Below are positions 291 to 31,231 of a stretch of DNA of 38,217 nucleotides, one piece after another (positions within the stretch are counted from its first letter, which is position 1; every line of letters begins with the position of its first letter). The stretch spans positions 1-38,217 of IMG/VR virus record IMGVR_UViG_2547132077_000001. The stretch is one strand, 5' to 3'. The stretch is from a virus. Lineage: Duplodnaviria > Heunggongvirae > Uroviricota > Caudoviricetes. The notes under the pieces were generated by a model, which was not told where the DNA came from, did no database searches, and saw only the letters and a program-made list of their open reading frames with translations. A program made the position numbers and the translations under genes.

Positions 291-1302
291 ATGAGCGAGC
301 GAAATAATTCATTTGATATAATTAGACATATCGCCGCCTACATGGTTTTATTTTCTCATCACTTCAGGTTATCTGGTGATCATGAGCCTTGTTTTTCTTC
401 AATGGGATAGTTATGGTGCGGTCGCAGTTGCAATTTTCTTTTGTTTATCTGGTTTCTTAATGCCAAAAAGTTTTAATTCATCTGGTTCGTTTATCGAGTT
501 CATGAGGAAAAGGTGTCTGCGTATATTTCCTGCATTATTTGTATGCTCTGTTGTTATGTATTTATTTGTCGCAGTAGAATTTAACTCCAATAATAGTTAC
601 GCATATTTATTTTCTTCCCAGCCATACTTAAATATCATAAGAAATACTGTTTTCCTGCAGAGTTATGTGGATGGAGTGTTTTCTGATTACTTTTACCCTC
701 ATGTTATTAATGGAAGCCTTTGGACGCTGCCTATAGAATTTTCATGCTATCTAATAATTGGCCTTGCGCTCTCTATATCGTTCACATGGGTCGGGCCTGC
801 TTTATTATTAGTTACATGCATACTTTCCACAATAATTTTCAACTTCTATCCTGAAAATTACACATATTTTAGTGTGCCTTTTAAATCATTATCATTATTT
901 GGCATGCCATTCTTTTTTGGTGCTTTATTGTCAATGACTACTGAGTCATGGTTGAAGTATAAAAAGCAAGTGTTAATTACTGCCTTATTGTTGCTTATTG
1001 CCGTGACTGGTAAGCCGGAAATACAAATTGTAGCGCCACTATGTTTGTCGGTTATAGTTATTGTTCTTGGCCTAACCATTAAAGACAGGGTTATAAACGG
1101 AAGGATTGATATATCTTATGGTTTGTATATATACGCATTCCCAGTACAACAGATTATTATAAATAATATAACTAATAAATTCATCCCATCCATAGCTCTT
1201 AGTCTTTTTGCAACTACATTACTGGCGACTGTTTCTTATTATTATATCGAAAAGCCGTTCTTAAGAAGAAAGAGAAAAGAAATTATAGTAGCTGAAGGTT
1301 AG
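291..1302 (+). pseudogene. oac: Acyltransferase-3 family membrane protein (O-antigen acetyltransferase-like), split by a frameshift: N-terminus in frame 291..410, remainder in frame 376..1302
   Basis: ATG at 291 preceded by AGGAG (281-285) encodes MSERNNSFDIIRHIAAYMVLFSHHF, a typical acyltransferase-3 N-terminus, then hits a stop at 408-410. The 308-aa track ORF in the +1 frame carries the rest of the polytopic membrane protein (AVAVAIFFCLSGFL motif) but has only a GTG start. The switch maps near a T5 run at 391-395. The symbol is inferred from position next to the tailspike. Confidence 0.55.
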
Positions 1303-1799: not shown

Positions 1800-3860
1800 C
1801 TATGGGGTTATATAATCATAATCCGACTTCATCCTTTCAGTTTCAGCGTAGCTAAAAGTATTAGCCGCTCCGCACAGGCCAAAGCGACCTCTGTTCATGC
1901 GATGCCCTGTGACAAAAATATTAGTAGAGTATGGTGTTGTGGCTCCGATCTCTACAACTATACATGATTTAGTATTTTCAACCCCTGAAACTCCAACCGT
2001 AAAGGTCATTTCCTTCCACGAGCCTCCACCTACTAATGTTTTTGAAAGTAGTGTAGTTCTTGCTCCATTGTCATTTGCTACATATATGTGCACTAAAAAT
2101 GTTAGTTCAACATCAGCGTTAAACAAAGCCTGGACTGTCACTGCCTCACCATTCACCAAGTCGGCTCGTGGATGTTCGAATATAATCGATGTCGTTGCAC
2201 CAGCATCACTAAGAACAGATGCAATATAACGACTCATTCTCAATGCATTGTTTGGAATCCCTGCACCACTCCTAGTAAACACTGTATTAGATGTTGATCT
2301 TGCAAACCATCCAGGAGCCACAGCAGTTGATGAGTTGGGAGGAATACTTACTGTGCTGTTCTCTATATAAATAATGTCACCATTCAGAGCTGGTATATTT
2401 GCATTGTATTTATCAATAACAGAAACATGGTTAGATGTTAACGGAAGAAGCGGCATATTTTCAGCGACAATCCTTCCGGCAACAATCTTTTGATATGGCA
2501 AATCGTTAATTGATATTATTGGCTGAATAAAACCTGACCCTGGAATATTTGAAATAAATACCTTGTCAACCTCCAAATAGTTCATTATCACATCATCATT
2601 CCCAGCAACAATTATTCTGTTTGAGTTTATGCCATGTAAATTAGCATAAACATCATTTATAGTGATGTCAGTCAGTATCTGCTGCGATGTCGTTTCTGAA
2701 TCGCCAATTTGTACGACTTGTTGGTGTCCAAATGCCATCTCGCAATAAAGTCCATCAACTGAAGAAAACGTTGATGGATATCCAAAAATAACGCATGTTT
2801 TTGCATTCTGTGCGGAGTTGTCTTTTATTCTCGTTGCGACAGCAGATGTATATGACATAATGCCAGTACCGACAGCGCTACCACCCTGCCATGCACATCT
2901 ATTAAATGCAATAAAAAGCCTACTATTTCCTGAATATCTATCTGTTGTGTTACCGCCATCATCAATTGCCTTGACAAAATTATTGGCGTGATCGTTATAT
3001 TCCATGTATGTATTATTTATAATATGTGGCCACCAATTTTGTGCTTTAAAATTAACTACCCACTCGTTGCTATCTTCAGGATTGATAACACGACATTTCT
3101 CTACTGTTGCCATATGAGATGTCCACGGCTCAAATTCAACAAGCTTTGCCGTGCCACCATCCATCATTACATTTCTAATTTCATAGCTGTCTTGAGAAAA
3201 AAATGCTGATCGCTGATCTATACCATCCATGCCCATAGAAAATATTGGTCCAATGTCACTATTTATTGGATCGCATACAAACTGAAAATCAACATGCGTT
3301 GGAGTTTTAAACGTATATCTGCCAAGTTGAAAACCATCTTCATGAATCGGGTTCCAGCGCTTATACCCTGAATATCCTTCTGTAGGTGGTGGATTTGGCC
3401 TTTCATCCAAACTTTGGATTAGTTCAAACTCATGTTCCAAGCTTCTTAGCGAATCGCTTACAGTTCCTGCGCCATCTCCAATATATGTCGAACCTTCGTT
3501 CCCTGTCAGTAAAACTTTGAACTGATCCGGGTCATACTTCAGCACATTCGGAAAATAAAACTGCTGCGCCCCATACGCATCATAAACAGCCATGGAATGG
3601 CCTTGCACAGTTACGAACTTGGCAATCTGTCCGTTATATACCGGATATCCGGCAGCGTTAATGATGATTGGTTGCGATACAGGAACATGAGAGCCGTCTT
3701 CGTTCTCCACATAAACCTGAATCTGGTTTTCAGGGTTTACCGGGTCAGTGTCAATTTTACCGATATAAATTTTGCCATTGGCTACGGCTTTAAAAGAACG
3801 AGCCATAGTGAAGAGTTGCGAAGGCATCGATACGATCACATTGGCTGTAATGTCTGTCAT
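1800..3860 (-). CDS. Tailspike protein: P22/Sf6-type N-terminal head-binding domain fused to a divergent receptor-binding domain
   Basis: First ~115 aa ([46 protein letters not shown]...VLKYDPDQ) match the conserved head-binding domain of P22-like tailspikes as I recall them. The remaining ~570 aa I do not recognise. Position at the end of the virion block next to ant is as in P22. Confidence 0.9.
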
Positions 3861-3960: not shown

Positions 3961-4839
3961 TCAGTAGTTATGTACTGAAGGAGGCAATTCTTTATTCTTA
4001 AGTCTCATCCATGCGGAAAGATTCGTTGGTCCGTCTGGCTCATTAATATCAACATCTCGTGTGTGGTTTATTAAAACGTCTCTCGCCATTCCGATAACAT
4101 ACGAGAATTCATGACCGTAGTCGTAGCATCTGCCGGAATAGTTCGATTGAATTTGTTTTAGCGCCGGATACAGTTCGCGGAATAATGCCTGTGAGCGGTT
4201 GGCATAATCCCATAACCATACAAGGCTGTTTGCTTCTTTTGCAGAAAGCTCGTTGGTTTTCTTCTCTTGTTTACCAATGAACTCACCTTCAAGCACTACC
4301 CTGTGGATGTACTCTACGGCCAGCGGGATTTGTTCAATTGAAAGTTCATCAATGCTGTCAATACCAAAACGCTGATGAACCATATTGTATGCATCGTCAT
4401 AGCGAAGTCCTTTCTTTCCTACCAGCATGTTTACTGCATCGCGTAGCGGTGTTCTTTCCTCAACAGTGGTTTTCTTTCCTTTTACATACTCGCCATGTTT
4501 GCGAATTGAAGGCAGAACTTCTGCTGTTACCCACTTGCGGAATTTGTGCGGGACTGAACCTTTATTGACTGCATCGCGGCAGCGCAGAACCAATGTATAC
4601 ATACCTGATTCGCTCACAATGCTTAGATTCTGCTCACCACCAAGGGTGTAACTTAAAGTTACTCCCTTTTCATCGTCATCAAGTGCAGTAAGCGCCTTGC
4701 GTGAGTTAGTCAAATCTAAAGCATCACAAACATCTTTAGCTACAAACCACGGCTCACCGCACTTGTTGATGACGCGGATTTCACTGTCGCCGAATTTGAA
4801 GATGGTGAAATCGTTTTGTGCCTTTGCTATACTTTTCAT
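3961..4839 (-). CDS. ant: Antirepressor Ant (BRO-N/KilA-N type N-terminal domain)
   Basis: 292 aa, N-terminal [16 protein letters not shown] motif typical of phage antirepressors; sits immediately downstream of arc as in the P22 immI region. Confidence 0.85.
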
Positions 4840-4907: not shown

Positions 4908-5069
4908 TTACGCACCAATGCGCCCTTCCTTCTTAAAGCTTTCCATTACTCGCTGATAAATCTCAGAATTAACAGACCGACCATTTTCTTCCGCCACCTT
5001 GCGTACCAAATCCAATACTTCTTTAGGCCACCGCAAATTGAACTGTGGCATTTTGCTCATTCCTTTCAT
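4908..5069 (-). CDS. arc: Arc repressor (ribbon-helix-helix)
   Basis: Internal Met of the track ORF gives MKGMSKMPQFNLRWPKEVLDLVRKVAEENGRSVNSEIYQRVMESFKKEGRIGA, 53 aa, essentially the P22 Arc sequence as recalled. RBS GAGGTG upstream. The extra N-terminal residues in the track ORF are read-through of the operator. Confidence 0.95.
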   Translation of the reverse strand: MKGMSKMPQFNLRWPKEVLDLVRKVAEENGRSVNSEIYQRVMESFKKEGRIGA

Positions 5070-5102: not shown

Positions 5103-5111
5103 ATTGAGAAT

Positions 5112-5132
5112 ATAGTAGAGTGCTTCTATCAT
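5112..5132. promoter_or_regulatory. Arc operator (21 bp, ATAGTAGAGTGCTTCTATCAT)
   Basis: Sequence matches the P22 arc operator as recalled (reverse complement ATGATAGAAGCACTCTACTAT), between arc and mnt. Confidence 0.85.
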
Positions 5133-5159
5133 GTCAATACACTAACTTGGAGTGATGGC

Positions 5160-5408
5160 ATGGCTAGAGATGATCCGCACTTTAACTTCCGTATGCCTTT
5201 GGAAGTAAGAGAAAAATTGAAATTAAGAGCCGAGGCTAACGGAAGGTCAATGAACTCTGAGTTATTACAAATCGTTCAGGATGCACTATCAAAACCATCA
5301 CCGATTACAGGATATCGCGACGAAGCTGAACGCTTGGCTGATCAGCAGGCTGAGCAGTTCAAGGCTATAGTGTTTGAGACACTTAAAAGATTTATGAAAA
5401 GGATTTGA
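5160..5408 (+). CDS. mnt: Mnt repressor (maintenance of lysogeny; represses Pant)
   Basis: 82 aa, MARDDPHFNFRMPLEVREKLKLRAEANGRSMNSELLQIVQDALSKPSP... matches P22 Mnt as recalled; divergent from arc. Confidence 0.95.
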   Translation: MARDDPHFNFRMPLEVREKLKLRAEANGRSMNSELLQIVQDALSKPSPITGYRDEAERLADQQAEQFKAIVFETLKRFMKRI

Positions 5409-5409
5409 A

Positions 5410-5745
5410 ATGAGATTTCTATCACTGTTCTTGTTAGCAGTTGTCTCTTCTTCCAGTGCTGAGCTGCGCGAGCTTCAAACGGGTAATGACCTTCTTTACA
5501 ACATTCAACAAGGTAAAAAGGGTGATGATTTTTCATCGCTTTACATTACTGGATATTTGCGCGGAGTAACTGACTCATTGATACTAATTGGTTCTCTATG
5601 TCCTCCTGATGGCGTTGACATGTATCAATACACCGATATCGTTGAGAAATATCTAAACAAAAACCCAGAATCAAGAAATGAGAGTGCAGTTATACTAACC
5701 GCCCTAGCAGTAGGAAAAACATTTCCGTGCAAAAAGAATCAATAA
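5410..5745 (+). CDS. Small secreted protein of unknown function (signal peptide, two Cys in mature part), translationally coupled to mnt
   Basis: ATG at 5410 lies 1 nt after the mnt stop. N-terminus MRFLSLFLLAVVSSSSA is a signal peptide. Occupies the slot between mnt and the ejection-protein genes where P22 carries sieA-type exclusion genes. Confidence 0.7.
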   Translation: MRFLSLFLLAVVSSSSAELRELQTGNDLLYNIQQGKKGDDFSSLYITGYLRGVTDSLILIGSLCPPDGVDMYQYTDIVEKYLNKNPESRNESAVILTALAVGKTFPCKKNQ

Positions 5746-5760
5746 CAATAAGGGCTTAAA

Positions 5761-6150
5761 ATGAAATTGATTATAGCAATGGCTTTCCTTGTCTTCTCGT
5801 TTTCTGTCTCAGCAGAGTGCTGGGTCGTTGGAGATATGCACGGAATAAGCTATTCAGAACGAAATAATTTTCAACCGGAAGAAGATGGTTTTAGTGGAAC
5901 ATTCATCATTAAGACAAACGGTGAAGATGCCAGTATCACATATTCTGGGACGGATGCGGGCGGCATGGCTTACAAAGCATTGTCTAAAAACTCCATCATT
6001 GGAATCGGCGCGAATGGCGAAACTCAACGAGTTATCGACTCATGGGTAATACATCCTAATGGAACAGTTTTAATGTCGAAAACCATTTCTGGTTATGGGA
6101 ATATGGATTCAACCAAAGCTTTTGTTGGAAAAGTAAAAAGAAAATGTTAA
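5761..6150 (+). CDS. Small secreted protein, paralog A (mature form starts ECW, ends with Cys)
   Basis: Signal peptide MKLIIAMAFLVFSFSVSA, then ECWVVGDMHG; C-terminus TKAFVGKVKRKC. Clear paralog of the ORF at 30827..31231. RBS AAGGG upstream. Confidence 0.7.
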   Translation: MKLIIAMAFLVFSFSVSAECWVVGDMHGISYSERNNFQPEEDGFSGTFIIKTNGEDASITYSGTDAGGMAYKALSKNSIIGIGANGETQRVIDSWVIHPNGTVLMSKTISGYGNMDSTKAFVGKVKRKC

Positions 6151-6174: not shown

Positions 6175-8016
6175 TTACTGCTGTGTTGCCTCAGTAGCAA
6201 GCAGCGGCCTGATGGCATTTGCAGCGTTACTCAACGCTCTTTCATAGGCTGGCGTTCCAGCTTTAGTGTTTGCCAGACGTAAGAGAGCATTCCTTGCTGC
6301 TTTGGACTCATACAAACGCATCATTGCACCAAAGCCAGCCTCAAGCCCCATTGATACACCAAGAGTCGCAGTTGCGCCAATCGTCCTTATCCTGTTGGCT
6401 TGTGATTGCCCCGTCTGAGTTACTACATTTGCGGTGTCTGACCTTGCTGTTTGCTGTAGAACTTCATGAAGAGCATCAAGCTCTTTCATGTGCTTTCCAG
6501 AAAAAATAGTGTTGTAAATTTCACCGCCTGACTGAGATTTCAGCTTATTAACTTCAGTGATGAACTTGGCTGGAGAGTCACCGGCCTTTTCCGCTATTTT
6601 GCTGACGTAAGCTGCACGCATAGCATCTTTCCCTTTATCATCCAGGGCGCTCCATATTCGTTTCACGTCAGATGGTTTTCTGCTTAATACAACGGTATTT
6701 ATAAGTTCAGGACTGGCTTCACTGCTTGCCTTGTTGAGCTTGTTAGCAATGTTTTTATTAAGCACCTTATTATAAACGTTTGCATAATCAGAATTTGCTT
6801 TAAGGTATTTTGCTGCGTCTGATGCACCGAGGTTTTTAGCAACTGCGTTACGAAGGTCTTTTGACATTGCATTCTCTACCATATTGGTAGCTGCTTTTGC
6901 CTGGTTGGGGAAGACCATAGCATCTCCCTGAACATTAGATCTAAATGCTGTTCTGTGCTGACGCAAGAGATCAAACGTAACATCCAAATCAGTTGCAGGG
7001 TTTGCTAATTCTTCACGTAGGTTACGCAAGGATGTAAGCAGGCTTTGATTGGCAGACGTCCCAAGCCGTTCCTGTCTTGCGATCGCTGTATTCAGAGCAT
7101 TCATGGTATTTGTGGTATCAACTGCGGCATTACCCATTTTATTGGTGACGTCATTGATAACAGCGCCAGCGGCATCCTTCCGCCCCCTTAACGTGGTGGT
7201 AAGAGATTTCACCACATCATCAGGGTTGTACTCACCAAAACGGTCAAAATAATTACTTACCAGCTTACTACGCGTTGCATATTGCTCCGCTCGCTTTGAG
7301 CCTGTCCCGAGCAAAGCCCCCTCGGCATCCTGAGTTAGGCCGCGAGTGAAAGCATTTTTCGGCGGGATAACATCAGATGTCATTGGTGTCACGCCCATCG
7401 ATTCTGATGTGGCAATTTTCTTCGCCACTTCTGGCGCAATATCACCTTTTATAGCCGTTATTCCACGCCCTATTCCCTTTGCTGCTGCGGAAAGAACACC
7501 CTGAGTGGCAAGGTTAACTCCGGCATTTTTAGCTGCATTTTGTGCGAAATCGCCTTTCTGATTTGCGGCCTCTGCCAGTGATCCAATAGCCATGCTTCCT
7601 GCCGTTCCAACTCCTGGAACTAAATACCCACCAATTGTTTCACCGGCTTGCGCGTAGGGGTCTGTCGGTCTGTCTACTGGACGATAAACATCATCCAAAA
7701 CCTTGGGTCCACCAAGCCCCTGACTGATTGCATTAATCAGACTTGCGCCGCCCTGCAATACGTCAAATGGTATGTTTACCAGACCACGACCAGCCTGTTC
7801 TGCAATTTGCCCTGCACTTTGACCACCAGTGAGCCAATCGCCAGCTTGTTGCATCAATGATGGTTCTTCCCGTGTTGGTGCATTATTGGCCTGATTAACT
7901 GTTTGTTGCTGAACAGCCTGACCAGCAAAATACTCATCAATGGCGGTGCCAATATCTTCGGTGCTCGTACCATCAGGAAAGGTAAATGTCTTACCGTTTG
8001 CAGTTACTTTCATCAT
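6175..8016 (-). CDS. Ejection (internal virion) protein, P22 gp16-like
   Basis: 613 aa, N-terminus [15 protein letters not shown]; last gene of the gp7-gp20-gp16 ejection trio by synteny. Confidence 0.85.

Positions 8017-29878: not shown

Positions 29879-31231
<1,353 letters not shown>

Follow-up and report, generated by a model that had tools for sequence, protein, structure and literature searches.

This report concerns a 38,217-nt stretch of viral DNA (the window), the whole of IMG/VR record IMGVR_UViG_2547132077_000001, which is a P22-like prophage in an orientation reversed relative to the standard P22 map. Our subject is the open reading frame (ORF) that follows the repressor gene mnt. 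This gene, which we call the target or rap, encodes a small protein with a predicted signal peptide, and we are nearly certain that the protein belongs to the Rap1a/Tai4a family of immunity proteins (PF18602). The locus contains the following features.

5104-5132, plus strand: Pmnt-like sigma-70 promoter (TTGAGA-17-TATCAT, 10 of 12 consensus positions), placed as Pmnt is in P22; presumed start of an mnt-rap-ORF2 transcript
5160-5408, plus strand: mnt, an Arc/Mnt-family repressor of 82 aa (Pfam Arc 4e-28, Repressor_Mnt 1.4e-9)
5385-5388, plus strand: A4 run in the 3’ end of mnt, A5 in the aligned copy of E. coli 631
5399-5403, plus strand: Shine-Dalgarno-like AAGGA inside the 3’ end of mnt, 6 nt before the target ATG (reading of the sequence)
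5410-5745, plus strand: target ORF, a Rap1a/Tai4a-family precursor of 111 aa (Pfam, profile search, structure model with Foldseek, RefSeq name)
5410-5460, plus strand: predicted Sec-type signal peptide, residues 1-17, cleaved between SSA and EL (heuristic reading and model confidence)
5461-5742, plus strand: mature four-helix domain, with model helices at residues 25-36, 40-59, 71-84 and 93-104 (structure model, profile alignment)
5761-6150, plus strand: ORF2, a signal peptide followed by a predicted small β-barrel; third gene of the presumed operon
6175-8016, minus strand: gene for a P22 gp16-type DNA ejection protein, convergent, 24 nt from the ORF2 stop

Gaps of 1 nt, 15 nt and 24 nt separate mnt, the target, ORF2 and the gp16-type gene, beyond which lie gp20- and gp7-type ejection genes, also on the minus strand. 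The mnt stop codon (TGA, 5406-5408) and the target ATG at 5410 are divided by the single base 5409, so that the ORF begins 1 nt past the mnt stop, as the initial annotation of this sequence had read it. That annotation had also described a three-gene mnt operon converging on the ejection genes. The gaps, the strands and the lack of any detected terminator-like site from mnt to the end of ORF2 bear out this layout, and we infer co-transcription from it; the Pmnt transcript of P22 itself, which carries mnt and orf59a, is consistent with the operon reading.

Sequence, profile and structure all led to the same family, in support of the initial guess that the ORF encodes a periplasmic inhibitor or immunity-like protein. 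The target matched PF18602 over profile positions 1-90 of 90, scoring 55.3 bits where the gathering cutoff is 27.7 (E 9.7e-15), and the domain was present in 32 of 32 homologues from the protein search. A single-sequence search of the PDB gave a marginal match to Agrobacterium tumefaciens Tai4 (E 0.08). When a 33-sequence profile was used, the same protein (6IJE/6IJF) was matched at 1.2e-7 and Serratia marcescens Rap1a (3ZFI/4BI8) at 2.4e-6, and both target cysteines aligned with the cysteine pair of Rap1a and Tai4. The AlphaFold2 (AF2) model built on the 33-sequence alignment was all-helical, with a predicted local distance difference test score (pLDDT) of 89.5, about 97 over the mature part, and a predicted template-modelling (TM) score of 0.78. 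The first seven Foldseek matches in the PDB were all chains of Rap1a (3ZFI, 4BI8) or A. tumefaciens Tai4 (6IJE, 6IJF), at probability 1.00 and target-normalised TM scores of 0.72-0.74; the next match had a probability of 0.44. Remote-homology search and structure prediction, two of the checks that had been suggested for this ORF, therefore both returned Rap1a/Tai4, and the homology to a known structural protein that would have spoken against the guess did not appear: none to structural virion proteins was found.

The identical E. coli protein, WP_001211768.1, is named ‘Rap1a/Tai family immunity protein’ by RefSeq and its Prokaryotic Genome Annotation Pipeline, so the family assignment is not new. 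The target belongs to a known family, in which it is a divergent, phage-restricted member, and automated annotation had already given it the correct name; what our analysis adds is its context and predicted biology. Among PHROGs the protein falls in phrog_3870, which has no assigned function, and neither the target nor ORF2 had a match in NCBIfam or PADLOC. A Rap1a-like ORF in a ‘Bacillus phage’ record was left uninterpreted; the record annotates an outer-membrane lytic protein and its host assignment is doubtful.

The protein begins with MRFLSLFLLAVVSSSSA, followed by ELRE, in which Ser at -3 and Ala at -1 follow a basic n-region and a core that is hydrophobic (Kyte-Doolittle means over 9 residues reach 3.0). 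This call is a heuristic n/h/c reading of the sequence. It agrees with the AF2 confidence, which is low at residues 1-20 and about 97 thereafter, with the start of the Pfam domain at residue 24, and with the N-termini of homologues, which differ in sequence yet stay hydrophobic. The predicted leader of 17 residues leaves a mature part of 94 aa (about 10.5 kDa, isoelectric point about 5) with exactly two cysteines, Cys64 in LCPP (codon 5599-5601) and Cys107 in FPCKK (codon 5728-5730), both kept in 90% or more of the 33 family sequences. The earlier description of a signal peptide followed by about 95 aa with two cysteines therefore holds. Its word ‘secreted’ would be better replaced by ‘exported to the periplasm’. 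The leader of two 65-67%-identical variants, L004 6001-6342 in another E. coli prophage and L015 6001-6342 in Silvania confinis, ends in Cys (FASAC-G and FASSC-G, respectively). Because this is a possible lipobox, some members of the clade may be lipoproteins and not soluble periplasmic proteins.

Comparison of relatives from five genera showed that synonymous sites were saturated, while the rate of nonsynonymous substitution (dN) was only 0.12-0.48; the ratio of nonsynonymous to synonymous rates (dN/dS) was 0.11-0.13 in the pairs for which it could be computed. The saturation of synonymous sites at low dN indicates a real gene under purifying selection. The small opposite-strand ORFs at 5342-5536 and 5546-5674 had no purifying-selection support of this kind. 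Within the phage clade, conservation peaked in helix 1, the Cys64 loop and the C-terminus.

The target gene is rare. We found it in 26 of 5426 complete E. coli genomes, as 27 matches, all of them chromosomal; 24 of the 26 genomes carried copies at least 99% identical to the window and the other two copies were 98.8% identical. These hosts came from varied sources. No close counterpart was present among 50,697 deposited phage genomes, and when 185,579 species-representative genomes were searched with a 14-sequence alignment, only 3 loci came up. Taken as a whole, the family is far larger (1848 representatives at E ≤0.001); the clade of the window forms one 50%-identity cluster within it, and the next relatives are about 40% identical.

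Every relative of at least 50% identity whose neighbourhood could be read lay directly 3’ of an mnt homologue or an mnt fragment, and all but one of them belonged to P22-like prophages or relics, within the immI region. These close-clade relatives after mnt came from E. coli 631, a 65%-identical E. coli variant, Serratia fonticola, two Tatumella species, Silvania confinis and Buttiauxella agrestis. In E. coli 631 the P22-like prophage that carries the target gene adjoins tRNA-Arg and intS. At the Silvania confinis locus the only prophage genes matched were rap, an ORF2 homologue and a fragment of mnt 25 residues long; this locus looks like a relic. The Buttiauxella agrestis locus (L006 5774-7206) holds an mnt fragment, an intact, 60%-identical Rap1a-like gene and a 61-residue C-terminal fragment of gp16 between metabolic genes; here the cargo gene seems to have survived the loss of its phage. 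The slot of Serratia fonticola (L002 8356-8715) is occupied by two tandem Rap1a-family genes of 112 and 119 aa with about 29% mutual identity, resembling an immunity array, and it has no Hex-like barrel. The possibility that the second Serratia gene is nearer to the solved Rap1a was set aside, as it had no PDB match at E ≤1. Another P22-like prophage (L026) carries mnt, an ORF of 150 aa and then an ORF2 homologue. The slot after mnt behaves as a small exchangeable cargo array.

These data bear directly on the idea that the target is a hitch-hiking gene without current function. Its rarity among complete E. coli genomes and its base composition would both suit a passenger: GC content is 39.0% in the target and 39.7% in ORF2, compared with 46.1% in the window and 47-49% in the adjacent ejection genes, and GC at third codon positions is 0.32 and 0.35, so that both genes have an AT-rich, moron-like composition. 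However, the protein has kept 50-80% identity while synonymous sites became saturated (dN/dS about 0.11-0.13), start coupling and the cysteine pair are conserved across genera, and an intact copy was retained in a decayed prophage. We regard a functionless passenger as very improbable.

What the solved family members do suggests a function. Rap1a is a periplasmic, disulfide-stabilised dimer (Cys78-Cys122) with a cleaved N-terminal signal sequence, and it sterically blocks Ssp1, a gamma-D-glutamyl-meso-diaminopimelic acid (gamma-D-Glu-mDAP) endopeptidase delivered through a type VI secretion system (T6SS) (PMC3852654). It dimerises through helix 2, and its Gln84 bonds the catalytic His of Ssp1 (PMC3852654). 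Rap1a is the founding member of ‘Tai4a’, whose fold is unrelated to that of canonical Tai4/Rap2a; proteins of its type co-occur with Ssp1-like effectors, and orphan copies exist in Cronobacter (PMC3852654). By analogy, we favour with moderate confidence the reading that the target is cargo of the prophage, an orphan immunity protein of Rap1a type (‘Tai4a’) that would block incoming Ssp1-like amidase effectors.

Mnt is the repressor that keeps the antirepressor off in the lysogen. In the mechanism that we propose, the target would be transcribed together with mnt from the Pmnt-like promoter and its translation would be coupled to that of mnt, and for these two reasons it would be made in the prophage state. 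The protein would be exported by Sec, form the Cys64-Cys107 disulfide in the periplasm and dimerise. It would then bind an Ssp1-like Tae4 gamma-D-Glu-mDAP endopeptidase injected by the T6SS of a competitor and, like Rap1a, sterically block its active site. Lysogen and prophage would thereby survive T6SS attack, as a form of lysogenic conversion for interbacterial defence.

Expression in the prophage state is supported by the Pmnt-like promoter, by the lack of a terminator between the genes, by ATGA overlaps and by the precedent of the P22 slot. In P22 the same strand of this slot carries orf59a, which lies within the Pmnt transcript before t_mnt, and sieA, an exclusion gene that is expressed from the prophage (PMC10883804). 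In intact relatives mnt and rap overlap by ATGA. At 99.2-99.9% identity, 24 full-length matches in E. coli each exceed the window query by 1 nt, and in the aligned copy of E. coli 631 the extra base lies in the A run near the end of mnt. The 1-nt deletion frameshifts the end of Mnt, which reads ETLK-RFMKRI-stop in the window, ETLK-KIYEKDLK-stop in E. coli 631 and DTLKDLYKKTT-stop in P22, and where the mnt stop customarily overlaps the start of rap it leaves a 1-nt spacer. It could be a homopolymer sequencing error or a genuine mutation of the Mnt tetramerisation tail.

A benefit at the level of the host is supported by the strong purifying selection on the gene, the intact copy in the Buttiauxella relic, the tandem genes of Serratia and the segments conserved within the clade. 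Helix 1 and the Cys64 loop with helix 3 align with the positions through which Rap1a contacts Ssp1 (Tyr50 to I32, Gln84 to D70). Because the conserved segments coincide with altered contact positions, a partner that is conserved but different from Ssp1 fits these data.

Several observations weigh against T6SS immunity as the function. The residues with which Rap1a contacts Ssp1 are not kept in the target (Gln84 is replaced by Asp70 and Tyr50 by Ile32 in the profile alignment, in the numbering of PMC3852654), so S. marcescens Ssp1 itself is not the expected target, and identity to the characterised Rap1a and Tai4 proteins is only 23-26%. Relatives in the clade of at least 50% identity came solely from P22-like prophages and relics. 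A gene for a Tae4-type effector was not present beside the target in the window or beside its relatives at 8 close-clade loci, a search that did not extend to the host genomes elsewhere, and a Tae4 neighbour was likewise missing at all 9 distant family members whose context could be read. These 17 loci (8 close-clade and 9 distant) are a sample biased towards sequences like the phage query. The distant members include a gene annotated ‘Tai4’ by the authors of a lake phage, one in a lambdoid immunity region beside a cI-like repressor, one in an integrase/primase element, one in a phage with ERF, SSB and Cro, one on a contig with a small terminase and one at a site beside smpB; related genes also occur on conjugative Pseudomonas syringae plasmids. 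At least 5 of the 9 lie in phage or integrative elements. Because the distant members lack a Tae4 neighbour and are often on phage elements, the phage-borne lineage could have a phage-related target, and the best-studied occupant of the slot, SieA, has an anti-phage function. Moreover, we infer export, disulfide formation, dimerisation and co-transcription, and the effector partner, its binding and the resulting protection would follow by analogy with the effector that Rap1a neutralises.

The main rival is accordingly superinfection exclusion or another anti-phage role, in which the protein would bind some part of an infecting phage, for example a papain-like NlpC/P60-CHAP peptidoglycan hydrolase of its virion or the trans-periplasmic ejection-protein conduit, and would shield the lysogen from other phages as SieA does in P22. 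The Tae4/CHAP fold class is also found in phage lysins, which counts in its favour, and so do the confinement of the close clade to P22-like prophages and relics and the frequency of effector-less distant members in phage genomes. The target also shares its locus, strand and convergence on gene 16 with P22 sieA/orf59a; SieA acts on gp16 and gp20 (PMC10883804), and Tae4 effectors resemble CHAP amidases (PMC3852654). However, the target has no similarity to P22 SieA (BLASTP E 6.7) or orf59a (E 9.5), no PADLOC match, and a soluble fold in place of a membrane topology, its sole hydrophobic segment being the cleavable leader. We know of no Rap1a-fold protein that acts on phages, and the endolysin of this phage is a lambda R-type transglycosylase, not an amidase. 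On balance we consider an anti-phage role unlikely. Three other explanations, which are immunity by a non-T6SS route, modulation of host endopeptidases and the functionless passenger discussed above, are less likely still.

The absence of T6SS context at every sampled locus leaves room for immunity against a peptidoglycan amidase toxin that arrives by another route (bacteriocin, contact-dependent inhibition, tailocin-associated or outer-membrane-vesicle) and is blocked at its active site in the same way. The fold and the periplasmic location would require only a target that acts in the periplasm, and the related genes on conjugative Pseudomonas plasmids are compatible with such a toxin. Nevertheless, the two solved family members found here, Rap1a and Tai4 of A. 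tumefaciens, have T6SS Tae4 effectors as partners (PMC3852654; PDB 6IJF), and none of our results indicated an alternative toxin family; we judge this explanation improbable.

A periplasmic inhibitor fold directed at papain-like peptidoglycan endopeptidases could also modulate the cell-wall enzymes of the host or the prophage, for example by restraining housekeeping NlpC/P60 endopeptidases or shifting lysis timing, without any role in defence, and the presumed expression of the gene beside lysogeny-control genes would suit such a modulator. Inhibition by Rap1a is, however, highly specific to its cognate effector (PMC3852654), no result supported a host target, and the endolysin, as a lambda R-type lytic transglycosylase (1AM7, 5e-105), has a fold unlike that of Tae4. 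For the same reason an inhibitor of the phage’s own endolysin, which is not a Tae4/CHAP-like amidase, was judged unlikely, and modulation of cell-wall enzymes in general seems to us more improbable than a non-T6SS toxin.

Immunity to T6SS amidases, the function that we favour, places the target among several known systems. With Rap1a (SMA2260 of S. marcescens Db10; 3ZFI, and 4BI8 in complex with Ssp1) it shares PF18602, a small all-alpha fold (Foldseek probability 1.0, target-normalised TM 0.73-0.74), an N-terminal signal peptide, predicted in the target, a mature size of about 10 kDa and a cysteine pair aligned with the Cys78-Cys122 disulfide. It differs in its low identity (23-25%), its changed Ssp1-contact residues, its four long model helices compared with five in the Rap1a crystal, and its location in a prophage immI region, outside a T6SS cluster and without an adjacent effector. 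A. tumefaciens Tai4 (6IJE; Tae4-Tai4 complex 6IJF) was the best profile match (1.2e-7; 25-26% identity; target-normalised TM 0.72-0.73) and shares with the target the cysteine pair and the C-terminal FPC motif; unlike the phage-borne orphan, it is chromosomal and paired with Tae4 in a T6SS locus. Canonical Tai4/Rap2a-type proteins of S. Typhimurium and E. cloacae are periplasmic, dimeric, disulfide-containing helical inhibitors of Tae4 amidases (PMC3695027), a role that the target may share. Their fold is different (PMC3852654), and neither the target profile nor Foldseek detected them.

Orphan T6SS immunity on mobile elements is already an established idea. Examples are the orphan Rap1a ESA_03939 of Cronobacter sakazakii (PMC3852654), the orphan T6SS immunity genes of the SAIDI-1 islet of Salmonella Typhi (PMC7400221) and the acquired interbacterial defence (AID) clusters of gut Bacteroidales, which hold acquired T6SS immunity genes (bioRxiv 10.1101/471110). 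What these cases have in common with the target is a horizontally acquired immunity gene without an effector, proposed to protect from the T6SS of other species. Their genes, often arranged in arrays, belong to T6SS clusters, to genomic islets or to conjugative elements, whereas the target is a single gene (two in Serratia) in the lysogeny-maintenance operon of a temperate phage, coupled to the repressor gene. P22 sieA/orf59a have the same position and orientation, 3’ of mnt and converging on gene 16, and no sequence similarity to the target; the prophage expresses them and they protect the lysogen (PMC10883804), and the target may resemble them in both respects.

The product of the second cargo gene, ORF2, starts with a clear leader; its Cys20 and Cys129 are invariant, and it is confidently modelled as a small β-barrel, for which fold searches found generic barrels only. 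It belongs to phrog_2651, the Sf6 gp38 family, and has a paralog elsewhere in the window, in an imm434-type region.

30198-30830, plus strand: 434-type cI-like repressor gene, 210 aa, HTH_3 and Peptidase_S24
30827-31231, plus strand: Hex-like ORF, 134 aa, 96% identical to phage 434 Hex (‘repressor protection protein’)

ORF2 and the Hex-like ORF are about 29-31% identical; both are predicted β-barrels and the target model is all-alpha, so the target is indeed unrelated to this pair, as had been stated at the outset. Both have Sec-type signal peptides followed by an invariant ECW motif. The first-to-last cysteine pair is invariant across the ORF2 family, and the cysteines of Hex are at equivalent positions. 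The start of the Hex ORF overlaps the cI stop by ATGA. Hex is co-transcribed with cI from PRM in lysogens, and its published role is cytoplasmic, the inhibition of RecA-stimulated repressor autocleavage by a 6-kDa fragment, in an account that never mentions a leader (PMC3564112). The predicted leader is in tension with this role. Because both repressor genes of the window precede tightly coupled genes for small, leader-bearing proteins, the case for the mnt-linked genes as cargo expressed in the lysogen is strengthened. RefSeq starts the ORF2 homologue at L001 6738-7052 at an internal Met, giving 104 aa and losing the signal peptide (window 5761-5835). Most ORF2 homologues are 129 aa long with a conserved leader, and the ATG at 5761 follows a good AAGGG ribosome site; the true start is probably this one, which gives the longer protein.

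The remaining features lie around the promoter pair, within the target gene and near the end of the prophage.

376-1302, plus strand: Acyl_transf_3 family ORF, 308 aa, beyond the tailspike gene, near the prophage end
1800-3860, minus strand: tailspike gene
3961-4839, minus strand: ant
4908-5069, minus strand: arc
5109-5137, minus strand: Pant-like promoter (TTGACA-17-TATATT, 11 of 12 consensus positions), which overlaps Pmnt, points away from it and drives arc and ant
5615-5642, plus strand: promoter-like site (TTGACA-16-TATCGT, 10 of 12, a consensus match only) inside the target gene, about 120 nt 5’ of ORF2

The P22 annotation shows an overlapping Pmnt/Pant pair at the matching position. The site at 5615-5642 could express ORF2 independently, as PsieA does for P22 sieA. 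Beyond ORF2, an intrinsic terminator was sought and judged unconvincing: a weak hairpin lies in the 3’ end of the gp16-type gene (z -1.66, without a T-run), and the one consensus match 3’ of ORF2, at 6246-6263, was no more persuasive. The Acyl_transf_3 ORF is a candidate O-antigen acetyltransferase and hence a candidate further lysogenic-conversion gene.

We found no description of a phage-borne Rap1a/Tai4 protein as conserved, mnt-coupled cargo of P22-like prophages in the sieA slot in the literature covered, which leaves out most subscription journals. A wider idea, that Rap1a-fold proteins are widespread cargo of temperate phages and that this phage wires a ‘periplasmic shield’ into its repressor operons, is possible and, in our view, doubtful. 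The shield would consist of the Tai4a protein and the Hex-like barrel after mnt, and of 434 Hex, ATGA-coupled to cI; all three have a predicted signal peptide and a conserved cysteine pair. If this idea is true, the Rap1a lineage of phages might counter periplasm-acting weapons in general, be they amidases of the T6SS, lysins of phage virions or tailocin-associated enzymes, and Hex would need re-examination as an exported protein. Should the target instead act on a phage enzyme, a T6SS immunity fold would have been reused for superinfection exclusion.

If the target protects lysogens from T6SS amidases, a common type of enterobacterial prophage would spread interbacterial immunity, and defence against bacterial weapons would join the traits conferred by lysogenic conversion. 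Such protection would also explain the slot between mnt and gene 16 as a hot spot of variable genes expressed from the prophage. The 336-bp gene offers a simple, testable system, and it could show how orphan immunity genes move among Escherichia, Serratia, Tatumella and their relatives.

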